Below the pieces are notes generated by a model, which searched no databases, had not been told where the DNA came from, and was given only the letters and a program-made list of their open reading frames with translations. DNA of 64,000 nucleotides, from IMG/VR virus record IMGVR_UViG_3300044700_000221; one strand, given 5' to 3'. The position numbers were made by a program, and so were the translations under genes. The stretch's first letter is position 1, and each line of letters opens with the position of its first letter. The DNA comes from an uncultured virus (IMG/VR IMGVR_UViG_3300044700_000221). Lineage: Duplodnaviria > Heunggongvirae > Uroviricota > Caudoviricetes. Below are positions 1-12,040 of this stretch, piece by piece.

Positions 1-1011
1 CACGCATCCCGGAGCTGCCTTGATGATCGCCCACAAGTCGCTATCACTCAGACTCATTGAGCCTGATTGATCGATGAGGACAACGCCACCGAGACCCCTG
101 GCACGACGGTCAAAGACACGTCGCTCAGGATCAGTGAGCATACGGTTGATACGTCGTGGGTCACGGCCACTGTTAGTAGCAATGCGCTTGCGACCAAGTC
201 GACCTGCTACACGTTCAGTGAGCGGAAGCTTGTCAAGCATCAATGGTGCAAACCCAGTATCGCCACCCTCGTCAGGTACTTCTTCACCACCAGGGAACTC
301 ATCTAGAGGGAACTCACCCTTATGGCGTAGTAGACCAGCTAGCTGTCGGGCAAGCCCAAGAGTGCCAGTCATATACCCAAAAGGAAGCTCAACTTCCTCC
401 TCATTGATATCTACCTCGTACGGCCTTGTACTATCGACCGAATCGGTGTAGCCCTTGTCCCAACTACGCTTGACAACTTTGATGGTCTTGCGCACATTCA
501 ATGCATGCGCAAGCATCGCTGGGTTAGCGCCGTCTTTGACAGCCTTACGGATACCAGCCATGAATGGCCTGATCGCACCAGTGCCCTCCATTGCCGCGAT
601 TGCGTAAGTCACGTCATTGAAGTTATTGGACTTGGCCACGATTTCACCCTCACGCTTCTCGGACCCATCGTAAAGATAGGACATATCGAAGCCTGCTTTG
701 TTGGCAATGTAGTTGACACGGAACTCTTCACATGTAGTGGCGAGATCCGTGTTGATGCCAAGTGATCGATGACTGTCAGGAACTACCGGACCAAGTGCAG
801 GGCTAACCTTGGCGTGCACCATTTCATGTGCACGGATTGCCCGTGATGTGTCGTCCTCGCCAAGAGGAACACGCATGCGTCGACCGTCGATATCGGTCCA
901 TGCGTTACCCCTCGTTGGGCGACCATCCTCAATTTTCCAGGGGGTTGGTTCCCCCTGGAAAATGTCCTCCCTGGACAACCACTCTGGGTATGGGGCGTGA
1001 GTTTTTGTCAT
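1..1011 (-). CDS. Metallopeptidase-like (HExxH) + VWA-domain protein, partner of the MoxR-type ATPase; partial, runs off the window start
   Basis: Not in the ORF track. Both ends translated by hand from ATG 1011 (TGATG overlap with the ATPase stop): MTKTHAPYPEWLSRED...RAIRAHEMVHAK...GGVVLIDQSGSMSLSD. HExxH and the MIDAS DxSxS motif are in the same frame. Confidence 0.8.
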   Translation of the reverse strand, partial: MTKTHAPYPEWLSREDIFQGEPTPWKIEDGRPTRGNAWTDIDGRRMRVPLGEDDTSRAIRAHEMVHAKVSPALGPVVPDSHRSLGINTDLATTCEEFRVNYIANKAGFDMSYLYDGSEKREGEIVAKSNNFNDVTYAIAAMEGTGAIRPFMAGIRKAVKDGANPAMLAHALNVRKTIKVVKRSWDKGYTDSVDSTRPYEVDINEEEVELPFGYMTGTLGLARQLAGLLRHKGEFPLDEFPGGEEVPDEGGDTGFAPLMLDKLPLTERVAGRLGRKRIATNSGRDPRRINRMLTDPERRVFDRRARGLGGVVLIDQSGSMSLSDSDLWAIIKAAPGCV

Positions 1012-1775
1012 CACTCTCCAATGTTGTTGACACGAATGGTGTCCACGATGGACATCCATGAATTGGGGAACAGCAGCTTGGCTGCTTCATTCAACGCTTC
1101 GTCAGCGTCAAGCCCAGTTGATAACAAGTGACTGCGCAACTTGTCAAACGCAGCCCACCCACGTAGTGAGGTGCGTCGCTCACCCTCAAGGTCTGCTGAC
1201 AAAGCAGCAGGCACACGCAGATCTTCTGACAAGAATGTCAGAGCATCTGGGTGGGGGGTGTTGATGCGCAACGCTACAGGGAAACGATCCTTGAGGGCTG
1301 TCGGCAATTCACGCATGTCCTCGATATTGGTTGTCATCACCGCACTAAAGCCTTGACGGGGCTTCATTTCAGTGCCACGTTCTGGGTGCAACCAAGTTGC
1401 ACTTGCTTCGCTGTCAAGCATGCTGAGCAATAGTGACAGTACGTCACCATTGGCACGGTCGATTTCGTCAACGACTAGACGACCGCCCTGGATGCCGTTG
1501 CCTTCCCAGGCACGGACCGCGGAACCATCGTGCCAATGCCAAGCACCACTAGCACTGGGCATGTAGTGACCAACGACGTCTGATGACGTCATTTCTTCCG
1601 TACAGATAAGACGGAAGGCACCCCCAAGGGTGTCGCCGTAGTTAAGGCCAGCAAAGGTTTTGCCGGTTCCTGGGGGCCCAAACAAGATGATCTTGTCGAG
1701 GCCAGCCTCAAGAGCGAGCTTGACGTCTTGCCAGCACTTAGGCAGTTTGTTGTTGTTGTCTGTTGCCATTTTCAT
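1011..1775 (-). CDS. MoxR/CbbQ/CobS-like AAA+ ATPase
   Basis: Walker A GPPGTGKT, Walker B LVVDEIDR, ALKDRF Arg finger. Start moved to ATG 1775 (or 1769), behind GAAAGGGG. Confidence 0.88.
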   Translation of the reverse strand: MKMATDNNNKLPKCWQDVKLALEAGLDKIILFGPPGTGKTFAGLNYGDTLGGAFRLICTEEMTSSDVVGHYMPSASGAWHWHDGSAVRAWEGNGIQGGRLVVDEIDRANGDVLSLLLSMLDSEASATWLHPERGTEMKPRQGFSAVMTTNIEDMRELPTALKDRFPVALRINTPHPDALTFLSEDLRVPAALSADLEGERRTSLRGWAAFDKLRSHLLSTGLDADEALNEAAKLLFPNSWMSIVDTIRVNNIGE

Positions 1776-1806
1776 ATCCCCTTTCAAGGGTTTGGGTGGA
1801 TAACAA

Positions 1807-1841
1807 TGGACGACGGCACGGTTGCACCGTACCGCCGTCCA
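1807..1841 (-). repeat. Leader hairpin repeat, copy 1 (TGGAC..GG...AACCGTG...CGTCCA)
   Basis: Minus strand TGGACGGCGGTACGGT-GCA-ACCGTGCCGTCGTCCA pairs fully using two G-U pairs. Related copies at 3458-3492 and 5141-5175. Confidence 0.75.
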
Positions 1842-1860
1842 GAAAGAACTACTAAGGAAT

Positions 1861-2202
1861 CTACGGTGCAGATTCCTCCAGCCCAAGGTGGGCTGGTACA
1901 TCGATGATCTGGTTTGTAAACCAGGGCCACAAGTCTGGCAACACTAATGTCAGCCAGCCTGTCAAGTCATCAAGGGATTCAAACACCTTCCCCTTGACGT
2001 CTACTTTCACACCGACAACGTCGGCGTCCGGGATGTCGGACATGTCGTGACCGTATTGCTCACGAAATGCTTCGTGAACTTGTGAAGGCAGATCTTCTAC
2101 CTTCATAAGAAGATGCTTCGCAGCAATTACTGTCCAGCCTGTCATTGGGTGAAACCCTAACTGCACCATTGGGGGTGGTACGTCTGGCATGTCATCTTCC
2201 AT
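1861..2202 (-). CDS. Hypothetical protein
   Basis: 113-aa ORF with AGGAGG RBS, same strand as neighbours. Confidence 0.75.
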   Translation of the reverse strand: MEDDMPDVPPPMVQLGFHPMTGWTVIAAKHLLMKVEDLPSQVHEAFREQYGHDMSDIPDADVVGVKVDVKGKVFESLDDLTGWLTLVLPDLWPWFTNQIIDVPAHLGLEESAP

Positions 2203-2209
2203 TAGTCCT

Positions 2210-2355
2210 CCTGATGGAATTGGGGGGCCTTACGGTCCCTTATGGGTGGTTTAACTTTTCTATCCGCTTTACACGGACAGAAGGAACCGCAACCACGGTC
2301 GCGGGTACCTACTTCGGGGCCGTGGGCTTTCACCCACGACCACGACTTTCGGATT
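2210..2355 (-). ncRNA. Putative structured intergenic RNA (run of hairpins)
   Basis: GGTCGTGGG-TGAAAG-CCCACGGCC, CCGCGAC-CGTG-GTTGCGG and TTCTGTCCG-TGTAAAG-CGGATAGAA; G-U pairs work on the minus strand. Confidence 0.5.
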
Positions 2356-2362
2356 GTTCTAC

Positions 2363-2746
2363 TCACTCTTCCTCCTCAATGTCACTGAAACACCATGCGT
2401 AACGACAGCACCTATCTTCGAGAGGGACGTTGTCATCGTAGGCAGGGTGCCCGCCAACAAATTGTTGGCGCACATGCTCAGGGAATAATTCCAAGAGCGT
2501 GATCACACAGTCATGACACAAGTGCCATGACCGTTCTTCCTGTGTGTAGGGCCACGACTCGTTGAACATGCCGTAGCCTCCTAACCATTGAAGGCTGATG
2601 CCGTTTTCGACCTGCTCTAAGCAGACCTCTCGGTCTGTGCTGTCGTCGTAGACAAACTTGTCCTCTCCCCTGTACCTAGGCCACTCCTCTGGGGCCATTG
2701 GAGTTTCGCATTTGGTACACCGAAGCCAATCTGCTTTAGTGAGCAT
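2363..2746 (-). CDS. Hypothetical protein, possibly zinc-binding (CTKC ... CHDC)
   Basis: 127-aa ORF, two CxxC motifs, GGGAGGGG RBS, TAATG overlap. Confidence 0.75.
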   Translation of the reverse strand: MLTKADWLRCTKCETPMAPEEWPRYRGEDKFVYDDSTDREVCLEQVENGISLQWLGGYGMFNESWPYTQEERSWHLCHDCVITLLELFPEHVRQQFVGGHPAYDDNVPLEDRCCRYAWCFSDIEEEE

Positions 2747-2943
2747 TACCCCTCCCTCTTACGAGAGAGGAGTTCTGCAACTCTGCCCATCCTGCGGGCA
2801 TGGCGTAGATTCTCAAGAATCTCCAGCTGAAGTCGATGACCGAAGTCATCAACTCCAGACCATCGCCAGATTGGGAGGTCGTTTGAGAGCACACCCTCGA
2901 AATAGTTTTCGAGGAAGTTCTCTTCGTTGTTGTTGTCTTGCAT
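2746..2943 (-). CDS. Hypothetical protein
   Basis: ORF MQDNNNEENF..., AAGGGG RBS, translationally coupled to the next gene. Confidence 0.65.
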   Translation of the reverse strand: MQDNNNEENFLENYFEGVLSNDLPIWRWSGVDDFGHRLQLEILENLRHARRMGRVAELLSRKREG

Positions 2944-3021
2944 TTTTTGTACCCCCTTGGGTAGAAGCCCCACCTGATTGGTGGGGACACTTTGTGCTCA
3001 ATGGCTGAGTATCGTTGTTGA

Positions 3022-3393
3022 TCAGTCCGCTAACAGACTGATCAAAGTACTGGCCTGGTTTGCTAACAACCAGGCTTCCTTTGCGGCTTCCTTAGCCCGC
3101 AAAAGATCATTCAGGGCTACCAGCCGAGCTGGATCGTCGCCCTGTGAAAAGATGATCTTGTCGCTAGCTCGAAGCCCTAAGGCCTTGAGACCAGCGACAA
3201 CTCTGTGCTTATATAGATTGTGCTCATTGTGAGCACCCTCTACTATCCGCACGAGCACGGATTGCTGACGTGTCAGGGGGAGGTTACTAAACTCATCCCC
3301 TAACTCTTTTGCAAATTGGTCCATCAAAATGGCCATCCGGTTTTGAACCCGGTCGTCCATTGCTGGACTTGATTGCTTTTTTTTCTTACCCAT
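3022..3393 (-). CDS. Hypothetical protein (stem-enclosed gene)
   Basis: 123-aa ORF, GAAAGGGG RBS, flanked by inverted repeat 2996-3013/3432-3449. Confidence 0.8.
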   Translation of the reverse strand: MGKKKKQSSPAMDDRVQNRMAILMDQFAKELGDEFSNLPLTRQQSVLVRIVEGAHNEHNLYKHRVVAGLKALGLRASDKIIFSQGDDPARLVALNDLLRAKEAAKEAWLLANQASTLISLLAD

Positions 3394-3457
3394 AACAATT
3401 CCCCTTTCTAGGGATTAGTTGAATTTGTTATGACACTCAGCCATTGAGCGATTTGTT

Positions 3458-3492
3458 TGGACGGTGACACGGTTGCAACGGCGACCAGTCAA
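3458..3492 (-). repeat. Leader hairpin repeat, copy 2
   Basis: Plus strand TGGACGGTGACACGGTTGCAACGGCGACCAGTCAA; imperfect stem. Confidence 0.6.
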
Positions 3493-3510
3493 ACCGCCCG
3501 AGAAAGGTAG

Positions 3511-3631
3511 TGAGGCTGAGGGGAATCGAACCCCTGCGACACTTTCGTGATCCTGCCTACTGGCTTTCGGTTAGTTAATAACCAAGCCGCGGACGCGATA
3601 CTTTAGAGTTTGTGCGCTACCATTCAGCCTC
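3511..3631 (-). ncRNA. tRNA-like RNA (perfect acceptor stem and T arm, non-tRNA core), 121 nt
   Basis: GAGGCTG/CAGCCTC-A acceptor stem and AGGGG-TTCGATT-CCCCT T arm; no canonical D or anticodon arm. Confidence 0.75.
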
Positions 3632-3636
3632 TTGGG

Positions 3637-3668
3637 TGGGTCAGGTTTTACGACATGACCCAGGTCGT
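3637..3668 (-). ncRNA. Putative H-type pseudoknot
   Basis: Stem 1 ACGAC/GTCGT; loop TGGGTCA pairs with downstream TGACCCA across an AAAACC linker. Confidence 0.5.
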
Positions 3669-3783
3669 TGAGTTAGTAATCTTCAAGGCTCACTCACACA
3701 GCCAATACGCAGGCATTACCAACCTGTCATACCTTCGCCGGCATGCTAAGCGACAGATTTACGTCATGTCAGGACGCTCTCCG

Positions 3784-3999
3784 TCAGTCGAACGGAGAGA
3801 ATCTTGGTGACTCTTCGTCACAGCGGAATATGAAATCCGCTGCGTAGAGTTTGTCAATGCTGTCGCATTGACGTATGGTCTTGATTAGACCCTTTCGGGT
3901 CTCACGCAGCAATTGCCGCTCAAACTTCCGAGCTAAGCGTTGTTCCCGCTTGTATTCACGCACCTGGCGGTACGTGGTTGCAACCGACATTGTTTCCAT
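3784..3999 (-). CDS. Hypothetical basic protein
   Basis: 71-aa ORF, GGAGGT RBS. Confidence 0.7.
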   Translation of the reverse strand: METMSVATTYRQVREYKREQRLARKFERQLLRETRKGLIKTIRQCDSIDKLYAADFIFRCDEESPRFSPFD

Positions 4000-4002
4000 G
4001 AT

Positions 4003-4230
4003 TTACCTCCCCGCTTTCGCGGCTTCGATTTGGGCCTTGATCTCGGCGGTCATTTCCTTTACCTGCGTTGTTGCTTGAACAACCAACTTACTGGCTGTAC
4101 TCAACGCTCGGCTTAGGACTTCGTGATCCTCATTAGTCAAGTGGGTCATTAGCCCACGTTCCACGAAAATCCGCAAAGCGGATGTTACGTGGGTGACTTC
4201 TTGAGCAGTGCAAACTAGTTGTACTTCCAT
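4003..4230 (-). CDS. Hypothetical protein
   Basis: 75-aa ORF, GAGGT RBS; shares a 16-nt start context with the next gene. Confidence 0.75.
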   Translation of the reverse strand: MEVQLVCTAQEVTHVTSALRIFVERGLMTHLTNEDHEVLSRALSTASKLVVQATTQVKEMTAEIKAQIEAAKAGR

Positions 4231-4267
4231 GATTTACCTCTTCCTCCAAACCCCCACTGGGCGTGGG

Positions 4268-4340
4268 TGCTCTCGGCAGGATTCGAACCTGCGGCCTACG
4301 GTTTAGGAAACCGTCGCTCTATCCGCTGAGCCACGAGAGC
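4268..4340 (-). tRNA. tRNA-Arg(CCU)
   Basis: Cloverleaf: GCTCTCG/CGAGAGC acceptor, GCTC/GAGC D stem, ACGGT-TTCCTAA-ACCGT anticodon arm, GCAGG-TTCGAAT-CCTGC T arm. Confidence 0.95.
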
Positions 4341-4382
4341 GGGTATTTACTCAATGGTCGAACGCCCCTTACTGCGGGGTTG

Positions 4383-4733
4383 TTATTGAGCTTCCTCAAA
4401 GCTGTCAAGGCGATGAATGTACTCGTCTGTTTCCTGTACTAGCTGTAGAAATTCCTTTTGAAATTTCCCTGCTAAAACTTCGAACACGGCTGGCTTCATG
4501 ATTTCCATGAGCCACTCTTCCGTAGGGTATGTTTCGTACCCATACGCTGCATTGCCGAAACGTCGAACGAGGTGATACATTCCTCGCTCGACATCGTCGA
4601 GTGTCACATCACGCCCCGTGACGGGGCATACTCGGTTGTGGGTTCGTGCCCACTTCTCGAGTAGTTTGTGACTGTCGACGATCTTTTCACGTTGATTTAG
4701 ATCATCCGTGATGTACTTCTTTGGCTTTTCCAT
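4383..4733 (-). CDS. Hypothetical protein (stem-enclosed gene)
   Basis: 116-aa ORF, GAAAGGGG RBS, inverted repeat 4346-4365/4767-4786. Confidence 0.8.
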   Translation of the reverse strand: MEKPKKYITDDLNQREKIVDSHKLLEKWARTHNRVCPVTGRDVTLDDVERGMYHLVRRFGNAAYGYETYPTEEWLMEIMKPAVFEVLAGKFQKEFLQLVQETDEYIHRLDSFEEAQ

Positions 4734-4822
4734 ATTGTCCCCTTTCTAGGACTGGAGCAGCAGGAAGCGTTCGACCATTGGGTAAAAAGGTTGCCAATGA
4801 TTAGGTGGGCCGACCAAGTGGA

Positions 4823-5071
4823 TTACTTATAAATGTGGGCGCCGATTGACCAAGTTGATGAGTATATCTTTCTGATACCCAACATGACCATGGACTCTGC
4901 GCCCGTTTCAAGGTTACGAATTCTCAGTTGGTGAGAGCGCATGCGCCCAAACTCTTCTGAATACCCAACTGCAACAACCTTGCCAAAGACGCCTGGGAAG
5001 TCCAGAACATCTCCAACTTGTGGTTTAGACGGTTCTGTATACACATCAACGTCTTGAAACAAATATGCCAT
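4823..5071 (-). CDS. Hypothetical protein, possibly small beta-barrel (stem-enclosed gene)
   Basis: 82-aa ORF, GAGGT RBS, inverted repeat 4794-4815/5106-5130. Confidence 0.75.
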   Translation of the reverse strand: MAYLFQDVDVYTEPSKPQVGDVLDFPGVFGKVVAVGYSEEFGRMRSHQLRIRNLETGAESMVMLGIRKIYSSTWSIGAHIYK

Positions 5072-5140
5072 AACTACCTCGTTTCTGCCCTAAGGGGCAA
5101 TCAGAGGTCGGTTATCCACCTAACCATTGGGCGATTAGGT

Positions 5141-5175
5141 TGGACGGCTGCACGGTTACGCTGTGCGCCAGTCCA
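5141..5175 (-). repeat. Leader hairpin repeat, copy 3
   Basis: Minus strand TGGACTGGCGCAC-AGCGTAACC-GTGCAGCCGTCCA. Confidence 0.7.
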
Positions 5176-5255
5176 GAACGGTCGATGTCAGGACGTGCTC
5201 GGTTTGTTCTCCAAACCGTGAGGCCTAAGCCTCGTTATGGGGCTTTATGCCCCTA

Positions 5256-5411
5256 TCACTTGGCCTTGACGACCAAGTGGTTGAAGTCGACGCGGTTGTT
5301 CGTCAAACGAGCAACCTTGCTAAGTGCCACGACGGCCATGATGCGGCTTTCACCGCTGGCCTTGATGTGCTTGCCCCAAGGTGTGGGGCAAGATGCCTTG
5401 TACTTCTTCAT
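5256..5411 (-). CDS. Small basic hypothetical protein (51 aa)
   Basis: Not in the track; hand-translated MKKYKASCPTPWGKHIKASGESRIMAVVALSKVARLTNNRVDFNHLVVKAK, GAAAGGGG RBS. Confidence 0.7.
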   Translation of the reverse strand: MKKYKASCPTPWGKHIKASGESRIMAVVALSKVARLTNNRVDFNHLVVKAK

Positions 5412-5523
5412 AGTGTGTTCCCCTTTCTAAAGGGATAAGGAACACGCCCTGCCATCGGGGAGAAATGTTTCCCAACGGTTAGGCACACCTTGCTGGACAC
5501 CAACTAGTTGTTGTTGTTGTTGG

Positions 5524-5754
5524 TCAGTACGGTTTCTGGTTTGAATTCAGATAGATTGACGTCGTGATGGCGCCGTTTAACGCCGGGCTAGCAATGTCGT
5601 TAAGGTAGTAAAACACCTTATTCTTCAAGGCTGCTGCTTCGCCTTCGCTCAATTTATCGATGCCCTTGAGCATTTCGAGGGAATGTTCAATTTCTCGAAT
5701 TGCTTGTTTAAGCATCTTTTTGAGCTCTTTCTTCTTCTCCACTGTTACTCCCAT
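5524..5754 (-). CDS. Hypothetical helical protein (stem-enclosed gene)
   Basis: Start reset to MGVTVEKKK behind GAAAGAGG; inverted repeat 5451-5501/5770-5818. Confidence 0.75.
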   Translation of the reverse strand: MGVTVEKKKELKKMLKQAIREIEHSLEMLKGIDKLSEGEAAALKNKVFYYLNDIASPALNGAITTSIYLNSNQKPY

Positions 5755-5873
5755 GATGCACCTCTTTCCGGTGCCCAGCAAGCAATGCCTAACCATTGGG
5801 GAGAAAGGGACCGATAGCGCTGGCATGGGGGATGCCTGCTGCTTTGATGGGGTCGGTCGACTCCCAAGAGTGT

Positions 5874-6054
5874 GATGGACAGCGCCCCAGTTGCCCAAGG
5901 CGCTGTCCATCGGTACCCAATGGCGAGGGGTCATTCGATACTCATTTTCTAAGCGTCGACATTCTTAGCGTTAGACGCTCCCCTTGCGGGCATCGGCTTT
6001 CACCGATGATGGGTTCTCTTTGCGCCCGAAGGCAGCCCATCGTAACGAATGACC
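5874..6054 (-). ncRNA. Putative multibranch structured RNA plus 13-bp hairpin
   Basis: Closing helix GGTCATTCG/CGAATGACC with four internal hairpins carrying cUUCGg, GAAA and GCAA loops on the minus strand. Confidence 0.6.
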
Positions 6055-6176
6055 TGAGACAGATATACTCCTGAGTGGGCACTTGGTGTGCTAAGACGGT
6101 GGGATAGCGTCCGATGCCCTTCAGAGGGCGCTTCGACACGTGGCTGGGATACTAAGGACAGAGGGGCTCAATCAAG

Positions 6177-6725
6177 TCACTTGGAGACGACCGCCTGAAG
6201 GGCGTTCAAAACGGTCGTCATCTGATCAACCGTCAAGACGCCCAAGCGGACATCTTTCAGGAAGGTATTCACGTGGCGCTCAACGAGGACCGATGACTCG
6301 GTCTTCTTTGGCTCCGGTTTGCCGACAAGCGAAAGCTTGCGAAGCAATGACTCACGGGTTGCCCACTTTGTGAGGTTGCCCTCCGCAGTAAGGGTCAAGT
6401 AGTCACCGATGATGGTTTTGGTGGCCTCGGCGTTCTTGATGAACGCTTCACGCACCGTGCCATCGAGGTCCCAGAGGGTTGCCCCATCGGAAGGAAGAGC
6501 CATCGCCTTAGCGAACAAGACCACATAGTAGCCTCGGCCCTTCTCCTCGCCCAAGAGGAAATCAGCTTCGTCGGCCGAGAGACCGACAACCACCTTCTTC
6601 CATTCGGGATCGGTGACCACGGCATCGAAAGCAGCGATGCTCTCGACAACCGTACCGTGAGCGGTGAGGTACGCATTGATAGCGTCACCGCTGGTGAATT
6701 GGACTTGCATTTGTTGTGTACTCAT
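6177..6725 (-). CDS. Hypothetical protein, first gene of the leftward arm (stem-enclosed)
   Basis: Start reset to MSTQQMQ behind GAAAGGGG; long nested inverted repeats on both sides. Confidence 0.85.
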   Translation of the reverse strand: MSTQQMQVQFTSGDAINAYLTAHGTVVESIAAFDAVVTDPEWKKVVVGLSADEADFLLGEEKGRGYYVVLFAKAMALPSDGATLWDLDGTVREAFIKNAEATKTIIGDYLTLTAEGNLTKWATRESLLRKLSLVGKPEPKKTESSVLVERHVNTFLKDVRLGVLTVDQMTTVLNALQAVVSK

Positions 6726-7081
6726 GATGTCCCCTTTCAAAGGATCAATGTTACTTATGGAAGTAACTTTCACGAGCCCATATCCTAAGCGTAACCAGCC
6801 CCTACCCCTAGGTAGTATCTACAGCCTAAGCCATAGACCTATTCCTAGGGGATCAGAACCGTGCCGAAGCGCCCTATGAGGGGCACCGAACTGACCGACA
6901 CACGACCACACTCAGGGGACTAGCAGCGGGTAGCGCCACTCTGCTAGACTATGCCCCGCACCACCGAAGCAGTGAGGAGTCGTAGGAGTTACCCCCTACA
7001 TCAACCGCTTGAGGCGCACCTAGCGGAGGCAGGACCCAGCCCCCGATAACTGCCTAATTGCTGAATAGCCCTATTCTGAAC

Positions 7082-7150
7082 TGTGGATAACCTCATTGCC
7101 CTGTGGATAACTGGGGGGTTACCTGTGGATAACTGGGCACCTGTGGATAA
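7082..7150 (-). promoter_or_regulatory. Cluster of four perfect DnaA boxes (TTATCCACA)
   Basis: TGTGGATAA at 7082, 7102, 7124 and 7142, all in the same orientation, at the strand switch. Confidence 0.85.
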
Positions 7151-7188
7151 GGTAACATAGACCTATTCCAGAACTAAGGAGCTACACC

Positions 7189-7617
7189 ATGGCCAATGAA
7201 CCAGATCGCCCAACCGTTGATTGGAATCGTCCTAATGCAGAACCCCAACGTCCAACTACCACATGGAGACGCTCGGATACTACGCCAACCCCAGGCAAAC
7301 CAGATACTAGTCGTCACCCAGGGCGTCAAGTTAGCCGACTAGCTCATTTACTGGCTACCCATGCACAAAACACTTTTACAGCTCAAAAAGACAGCTTTAC
7401 ACCAGAAGGCGAGCAACAAGGGCTTGGTTTCTATCGTGAGAGTAGAGACTTCAAAAAAAAGATGGGTTATGATGATCTTGGTGAGACATTTATAGAACCG
7501 GCAATAAGAGCTTCTTTTAAGAATAGACATAATAAAGATTACAGTTACGCAGAGTTATATGGTCCTGACGTCCACCCTGACAAATACTTCTCCAGTGAAT
7601 TTACATTTAAACCCTAA
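7189..7617 (+). CDS. Hypothetical protein
   Basis: 142-aa ORF, AAGGAG RBS; contains DTSRHPGRQV. Confidence 0.8.
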   Translation: MANEPDRPTVDWNRPNAEPQRPTTTWRRSDTTPTPGKPDTSRHPGRQVSRLAHLLATHAQNTFTAQKDSFTPEGEQQGLGFYRESRDFKKKMGYDDLGETFIEPAIRASFKNRHNKDYSYAELYGPDVHPDKYFSSEFTFKP

Positions 7618-11831: not shown

Positions 11832-11905
11832 GCCGGGTGGTGCGTCCGGTTGACGCAAGGTGTCTTATAAACACCCGTAGACGGGTTCAACTCCCGTACT
11901 CGGCA
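11832..11905 (+). tRNA. tRNA-Ile(UAU)
   Basis: GCCGGGT/ACTCGGC-A acceptor, TGCG/CGCA D stem, GGTGT-CTTATAA-ACACC anticodon arm, ACGGG-TTCAACT-CCCGT T arm; G at position 8 is atypical. Confidence 0.85.
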
Positions 11906-12040
11906 CTTTTGATACAATCTATAGGTGACTAAAGAGAACCACCCCACATGTGATACTTCCACGCAGTGTGTTTACTGTGGAGGACAGCTTGTACCTGAAC
12001 ACGCCCACTACAAGTGTAAAGACTGTGGGCAAAGAGACGC

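Follow-up and report, generated by a model that had tools for sequence, protein, structure and literature searches.

A tetraloop-rich five-way-junction RNA candidate in the probable early operon of a BRock-like phage

Results

A non-coding gap in the genome of an uncultured virus carries, on its minus strand, a compact 126-base sequence whose predicted fold is a five-way junction bearing a cluster of UUCG and GNRA loops found only once in that genome. We propose this junction RNA as an uncatalogued phage RNA candidate. All positions below refer to the window, the whole 64,000-nt stretch that we analysed, which makes up the opening 64 kb of an IMG/VR record of 88,089 bases (96% complete).

Genomic setting

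The major capsid protein shares 58.8% identity with that of Streptomyces phage BRock and 75-77% identity with contigs from two GTDB assemblies, and the labels of the sequencing runs containing this region read freshwater, riverine or simply metagenome. Judged by such sequence comparisons, the phage is BRock-like and its host likely actinobacterial. The junction lies in a minus-strand series of small genes without known function that extends from about 6900 to 1000 and resumes at the other end of the record; we call this series the early operon, a likely timing drawn by analogy. The gap itself was described at first pass as a 400-nt non-coding stretch with structured RNA, a description that stands except for the size, which is 422 nt (6176-5755) between genes of 182 and 76 aa (Table 1).

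The upstream 182-aa protein matched nothing in Pfam or PHROG, its predicted structure (pLDDT 41) is too low in confidence for use, and none of its look-alikes in the Atlas was named at a score of at least 0.9. The downstream 76-aa gene is called on just 2 contigs. A search for loci of both flanking genes found none, despite homologues in the protein collection. Neither a sigma-70-like promoter nor a U-tailed terminator was found near the junction. A tRNA-Arg gene lies on the same strand, 1.6 kb downstream.

Table 1. Features of the junction RNA and its surroundings (window positions).
Feature	Position	Strand	Remarks
5' arm, upstream-gene duplex	6860..6916	-	pairs with 6140-6070
Upstream gene, 182 aa	6177..6725	-	first gene of the probable minus-strand early operon; no known family
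3' arm, upstream-gene duplex	6070..6140	-	inverted repeat I1; pairs with 6860-6916
65-aa ORF	5942..6139	-	GTG start, no ribosome-binding site; judged no gene
5' tail of likely mature RNA	6055..6101	-	contigs reach 6101, 6114, 6101
Predicted pseudoknot, 5' half, UCUUAGC	6090..6096	-	perfect complement of 5969-5963
Core five-way junction	5929..6054	-	126 bases; from sequence, folds and tetraloop statistics
P1	6054-6046/5937-5929 (9 bp) + 6044-6042/5941-5939 (3 bp)	-	closes junction; pair probability 0.95
P2	6041-6036/6013-6008	-	GCC-UUCG-GGC, 10-nt A-rich bulge; pair probability 0.91
P3	6007-6002/5997-5992	-	GAAA loop; pair probability 0.93
P4	5990-5988/5983-5981	-	GCAA loop; pair probability 0.89
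P5	5980-5974/5957-5951	-	16-nt capping region; pair probability 0.92
Pseudoknot 3' half, GCUAAGA, P5 loop	5963..5969	-	predicted 7 bp
Joining strand	5950-5942	-	9 nt, purine-rich
Arm a, CCU-C-GCCAUUGGG	5916..5928	-	inverted repeat I11; contigs end at 5930, 5918, 5924
Hairpin, GCAA loop	5911-5895/5890-5874	-	17 bp; z -8.9; repeat family D1
Arm a'	5770..5800	-	inverted repeats I2, I11; complements arm a and 5501-5471
Downstream gene, 76 aa	5524..5754	-	no known family; ribosome-binding site present

Fold of the core and strand

The first-pass annotation had drawn a closing helix and four hairpins on the minus strand, and both the sequence and the folds place every one of them as drawn. In the whole-gap fold from which the pair probabilities of P1-P5 are taken, the small UUCG hairpin has a mean pair probability of 0.73. 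The core, taken as 127 nt, folds at -49.3 kcal/mol (z -3.98), with none of 200 shuffles as good, and P1-P5 persist when 1.5 kb is folded; the extended piece of 197 nt gives z -1.2, no better than shuffles. The plus strand folds equally well (z -5.5), so the energy of the fold does not tell the strand. A good fold is by itself nothing special here, since 19 of 55 folding windows in the early minus-strand region have z<-3 (2 of 55 in the late region). Junctions with at least five helices occur in the minimum-energy fold of 111 of 716 windows. The over-structuring spans the whole early region (1-7000, minus strand), coding sequence included.

The strand is given by the loops instead of the energy. 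The minus strand of the core carries three UUCG/GNRA loops and the plus strand none, which bears out the earlier assignment of these loops to the transcribed strand, and none of 1000 shuffles gives three. Nowhere else on either strand of the 88-kb genome do three such hairpins follow each other inside 70 nt, and no such cluster occurs in 604,191 bases from 35 related phage loci; these two results come from a sequence-level scan, a fold-based scan (0 of 4400 windows) having missed the junction itself and been set aside. Of the genome's 29 UUCG/GNRA hairpins on the minus strand, 18 belong to the early region (1-7000). The hairpin GGUGAAAGCC is present in three copies, at 6004, 5354 and 2334, each of them minus-strand and within the early region; two copies lie inside small ORFs, and there is none in the close relatives L001 or L002.

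RNA contigs and predicted release

For the interval 5000-7000, 21 sequencing runs are listed, 7 of them RNA. The runs were picked for containing part of this interval, and four RNA runs were aligned to 3000-7300, with RNA runs X18, X19 and X21 and the DNA runs left out. Three of the four yielded one contig each over the core, from three studies (2025, 2024 and 2018), aligning over their full length at a depth of about 3: 5930-6101 (172 nt, 0 differences), 5918-6114 (198 nt, 2 differences) and 5924-6101 (178 nt, 1 difference). The contig of the fourth run, at 6312-6464, lies within the upstream gene, and the remaining pieces are tRNA matches from other organisms plus one diverged piece at 5251-5430. 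Coverage of the core by three of four runs has a P of about 1e-4 under uniform placement over 5000-7000, a figure that ignores library bias toward stable folds. The four runs have no contig over the tmRNA-like element described below or over most coding sequence, an absence that carries no weight. Taken together, the contigs hint weakly that an RNA of about 175-195 nt is released, its ends lying near 6101-6114 and 5918-5930; they give neither strand, true ends nor level, and may stem from DNA in the libraries. The diverged piece, a 230-nt RNA contig that run X15 yields from a diverged relative, matches both ends of the 51-aa ORF region at 5251-5430, which is itself hairpin-rich.

The first pass had placed the junction between two gene-enclosing stems and suggested that it could be released as a discrete RNA. 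The contig ends hint weakly at such a release, but the extent originally drawn has to be shifted: the likely RNA begins about 50-60 nt further upstream and ends before the hairpin at 5911-5874. On the 5' side, the contigs end (6101, 6101, 6114) at or just before an asymmetric internal loop, 6108-6101, in the duplex around the upstream gene, and this loop is our candidate 5' cut site in the modelled pairing. The duplex (-85 kcal/mol, with runs of 16 and 11 bp) is longer than the repeat finder reported, and its distal part is formed by what would become the 5' tail of the mature RNA. On the 3' side, all three contig ends (5930, 5924, 5918) fall on arm a, the modelled candidate for the 3' cut site, which pairs over 12 of 13 bp with 5800-5788 at a pair probability of 0.99. 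The second partner of arm a', 5501-5471, lies beyond the downstream gene, and the two partners are mutually exclusive. Both flanking duplexes offer at least 12 bp at the product junctions, the size criterion for RNase III given in PMC8708148.

The 5' tail could also contact the core. A 7-bp match to the P5 loop is reached by 0.8% of 5000 tail shuffles, with the loop picked post hoc, and the chance rises to about 3-4% once the choice among loops is allowed for. Two letter differences in the RNA contigs, each backed by one shallow contig, keep predicted pairs: C5974U leaves a U-G pair at the end of P5, and A5965G, seen in one contig, retains the pseudoknot pair as G-U.

The downstream hairpin and the slot in relatives

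The hairpin at 5911-5874, first recorded as a 13-bp stem, has 17 pairs and is a member of a repeated GGAC...GUCCA element. Across three lineages 14 of 14 pairs are kept, 2 of them changed on both sides. By these sequence comparisons it is a separate, covarying punctuation element, and it likely lies outside the mature RNA.

Close syntenic relatives among the IMG/VR records number four, namely L001 together with L002, L003 and L041; since the last three are nearly identical, they amount to two further lineages. Both keep the hairpin without the junction, which makes the hairpin punctuation and the junction an accessory cassette. The layout of arm a, hairpin, arm a', gene and arm a'' is also found in the relatives, with different sequences. 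Because the flanking genes vary between relatives, the RNA in the slot is not bound to any one gene. In the relatives the same slot holds another structured element of about 60 nt (L001 3500-3560; L002 6485-6545), whose inner 44 bases are identical across the two lineages while the outer stem varies and the flanking genes differ. This element has no Rfam match (tested in L041) and no sequence likeness to the junction. We also observed that a' can pair with either a or a'', with cores of the CCAAUGG/CCAUUG type or CUAAUC/GAUUAG in the gene-enclosing duplexes, which are located at 5928-5471, 5132-4810, 4786-4346 and 3449-2996 in the window, at 3578-4176 in L001 and at 6548-6960 in L002.

Searches for homologues and families

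The first-pass annotation had matched the structure to no known riboswitch and suggested a search of Rfam. That covariance-model search came back empty: Rfam 15, with its riboswitches, ribozymes, GOLLD, ROOL, OLE, tmRNA, 6S and SRP, gave no hit at the gathering threshold, and extending it to E 10 added only four chance-level matches (9.5-14.9 bits, far under the thresholds). Searches of INPHARED phages and PLSDB plasmids with blastn at E 1 found no homologue. Exact patterns in IMG/VR returned 0 and 1 match, the single one (L045) without a model score, and a second pattern scan with 28 matches recovered the four close records and otherwise ordinary tRNAs. A pattern search of JGI metagenomes gave 102 loci, none of them a homologue (best model E 0.035-0.08, 16S). 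Among the matches listed these loci are mostly 16S rRNA and FMN-riboswitch-like, which we take them to be from their sequence.

Covariance models, which were built from a single sequence and which distant homologues can escape, found no homologue in 36 viral records, including the complete close relative G002. There was likewise no junction homologue in 29 GTDB genomes with related capsid genes or in 151 genomes of the class of G045, although the collections searched may lack the records nearest to the window. One weak model match, L176, covers only the unpaired tail and not the junction, and was rejected. Six short motifs had no match in 6 of the 9 supplement files of Fremin 2023 (PMC10690425; 10,006 candidates), and a matching candidate may sit in files 1, 2 and 4, which were outside this motif search. 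Word searches of open papers found no description of the junction RNA.

Possible roles of the junction RNA

Our tentative preference, which we regard as possible rather than probable, is that a stable RNA is cut out of the early message and would work in trans, as a decoy to which a host protein binds. The junction would be transcribed with the minus-strand early operon, and a host RNase III-type enzyme would cut the upstream duplex at its internal loop (about 6101-6114) as well as the CCAUUGG duplex (about 5918-5930). The freed 5' tail could then pair with the P5 loop, and the folded RNA may bind a host factor such as a defence or translation protein. Release is supported indirectly; the decoy step is suggested by context only, namely that the slot is accessory and the early region around it variable, with a tRNA and a tmRNA-like mini-RNA encoded there as well. 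This reading draws together the fold and its minus-strand tetraloops, the only such cluster in the genome, with the confinement of three of four RNA runs to 6114-5918, both ends on predicted duplexes. It is also consistent with the resemblance of these duplexes to the T7 R1.1 RNase III substrate (PMC8708148), with letter differences that both keep predicted pairs, with an overlapping ORF that has neither ribosome-binding site nor homologue, with the nearby tRNA-Arg and covarying tmRNA-like mini-RNA, and with flanking genes that vary among relatives. Against it stand the lack of a homologue in the viral, GTDB, INPHARED, PLSDB and JGI searches, the shallow contigs (depth about 3) without strand or true ends, the z of -1.2 for the 197-nt piece, and the over-structured early region, in which a stable leftover without a role would fit equally.

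We consider it somewhat unlikely that the junction is a cis element on its own transcript, serving antitermination or processing and stability after the first early gene, with the RNA in the libraries being the remainder after cutting. Its position directly behind the first gene of a long operon would suit such a role, and two other lineages fill the slot with a different conserved structure of about 60 nt, as if a structure were required there. The put sequence of HK022 is an element of the nascent RNA from early genes (PMC9378689). However, the junction is single-copy, and the adjacent repeated module of hairpin and arms already fills the punctuation role; with 126 nt and four branches it is larger than put, and it bears no sequence likeness to the slot element of the relatives.

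An unlikely further reading makes the junction a new RNA class, armed only when RNase III frees a pseudoknot partner that had been locked in the gene-enclosing duplex. It would then be an RNA-only anti-defence or translation decoy, one interchangeable cassette among several carried by freshwater actinophages in their early operon, with the mimic of the tmRNA domain as another such cassette.

Decidedly unlikely, in our view, is an RNA that serves no function in itself, arising as a side effect of general selection for tight folding of the early transcript and resisting decay through its compactness. The frequency of strong folds (19 of 55 early windows), of five-way or larger junctions (111 of 716) and of early-region tetraloop hairpins (18 of 29 on the minus strand) would agree with such an origin, as would the absence of the junction from the close relatives searched. 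Yet the three-tetraloop cluster has no second instance in the genome, a compact phage retains 126 non-coding bases, and the contigs favour the junction over equally folded neighbours, in runs picked for 5000-7000.

It is very doubtful that we are dealing with a new ribozyme or ligand-binding RNA, which would cleave itself near 6101 or, on binding a small molecule, control the downstream gene through an a/a' switch. The compact multi-helix junction with its A-rich strands and possible pseudoknot would be in keeping with this, two contigs from different studies both begin at 6101, and arm a' has two mutually exclusive partners; but no Rfam ribozyme or riboswitch matches to E 10, arm a lies outside P1, the a/a'/a'' layout also occurs in relatives that lack the junction, and the downstream gene is rare and of no known family.

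Hardly credible is the notion that the 65-aa ORF is a true gene and the structure incidental mRNA folding: the frame is open and, of the two letter differences, one leaves the residue unchanged (Leu56), but the other turns Arg59 into Gly, the GTG start is buried in the long duplex without the purine-rich ribosome-binding site present at 6 of 6 neighbouring genes checked, and the ORF has no homologue among 5.8 billion proteins, a collection in which the upstream protein has 8 clusters at 68-98% identity.

Comparison with known RNAs

As a stable RNA excised from its message, the junction RNA would resemble T4 RNA C and RNA D in being a small stable phage RNA. The function of these two is given as unknown in PMC9697503; according to the record annotation, rnaC and rnaD (species 1 and 2 RNAs) measure 139 and 119 nt and adjoin tRNA genes. 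The junction model does not match them (best E 0.15, T4 region). RNA C has a tRNA-like fold with a T arm, whereas the junction RNA lacks both a T loop and an acceptor end, and RNA C and D are late RNAs, in contrast to its position in a likely early operon. GOLLD, ROOL, OLE and raiA are similar in that they consist of many helices and have no known function; phages carry GOLLD and ROOL, frequently close to tRNA islands, and OLE contains a five-way junction (PMC12286853). In size they differ from the 126-nt core, with GOLLD often exceeding 800 nt, OLE about 600 nt and raiA 205 nt, and the core falls short of the 200-800 nt with a family-specific core that define ornate large RNAs. What T4 RNA C and D, GOLLD and ROOL do has been asked for a long time, and counter-defence by means of RNA has become a theme of late; the junction RNA is a candidate both small and synthesizable, for which ends and a route of release are predicted, with an expression hint from rivers and lakes. 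Covariation screens would miss such RNAs because the accessory slot is filled differently in close relatives. Were it a mere leftover of mRNA processing, the junction would still mark cut sites of the early message.

In T7 early mRNA, RNase III makes single-strand cuts in imperfect intergenic duplexes that mature and protect the pieces (PMC8708148). The likeness to R1.1 lies in the long duplexes, imperfectly paired, that sit between the genes of a polycistronic early message. Unlike in T7, entire genes are enclosed here by arms that lie hundreds of bases from each other, the cutting is predicted, and the piece between the two duplexes is a non-coding RNA. HK022 put and lambda nut are likewise structured RNAs early in a phage early operon, and the position of the junction is compatible with such an element. 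The put RNA has two stems and remains with the polymerase, whereas the junction is made of five helices and seems to build up as a piece of its own.

The FMN riboswitch and the V6 region of 16S rRNA have the local hairpin pair GGUGAAAGCC...CCCGCAAGGG in common with the junction, resembling P3 and P4. This likeness is limited to 26 bases (best 15.7 and 16.4 bits, against 161.8 bits for the junction itself). An FMN riboswitch was rejected, as it requires a six-helix junction with a conserved core and T-loop hairpins; there are five helices here and no Rfam match to E 10. In a phage single-guide RNA (vsgRNA) or Racr, hairpins stand in linear series behind a CRISPR repeat or a repeat:anti-repeat duplex. 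The junction differs from this guide-RNA layout in that P1 encloses all hairpins; the best Rfam repeat match to the junction region (14.9 bits) is on the opposite strand.

Other RNA elements and repeats nearby

A 122-nt tRNA-like RNA is encoded at 3508-3631 (minus strand) in the window, at 4447-4561 in L001 and at 7749-7869 in L002. It matches the tRNA-like domain of tmRNA alone (26.7 bits, E 6e-9, below threshold), with acceptor and T arms and two inner hairpins and no tag region. Over the three lineages, 3 of its 30 pairs are changed on both sides, and a G3-C70 pair stands where the alanine G3-U70 pair would be. From these features it is possibly an SmpB decoy or an analogue of T4 RNA C, and it is arguably a stronger candidate than the junction RNA. 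Inspection by eye showed a further tRNA-like element, again with a T arm, that is nearly the same in L001 (4181-4272) and L002 (7358-7455); no counterpart was noticed in the window. ARAGORN, but not Rfam at threshold, calls a tRNA-Ile with a TAT anticodon at 11832-11906 (plus strand).

The head of the early operon (7082-7150, minus strand) contains four TTATCCACA boxes and repeated AATAGGGCTA motifs, which are conserved in the relatives (L001 2300-2370, L002 5325-5385). We take TTATCCACA to be the DnaA-box consensus, and the cluster is a possible origin or DnaA-binding site.
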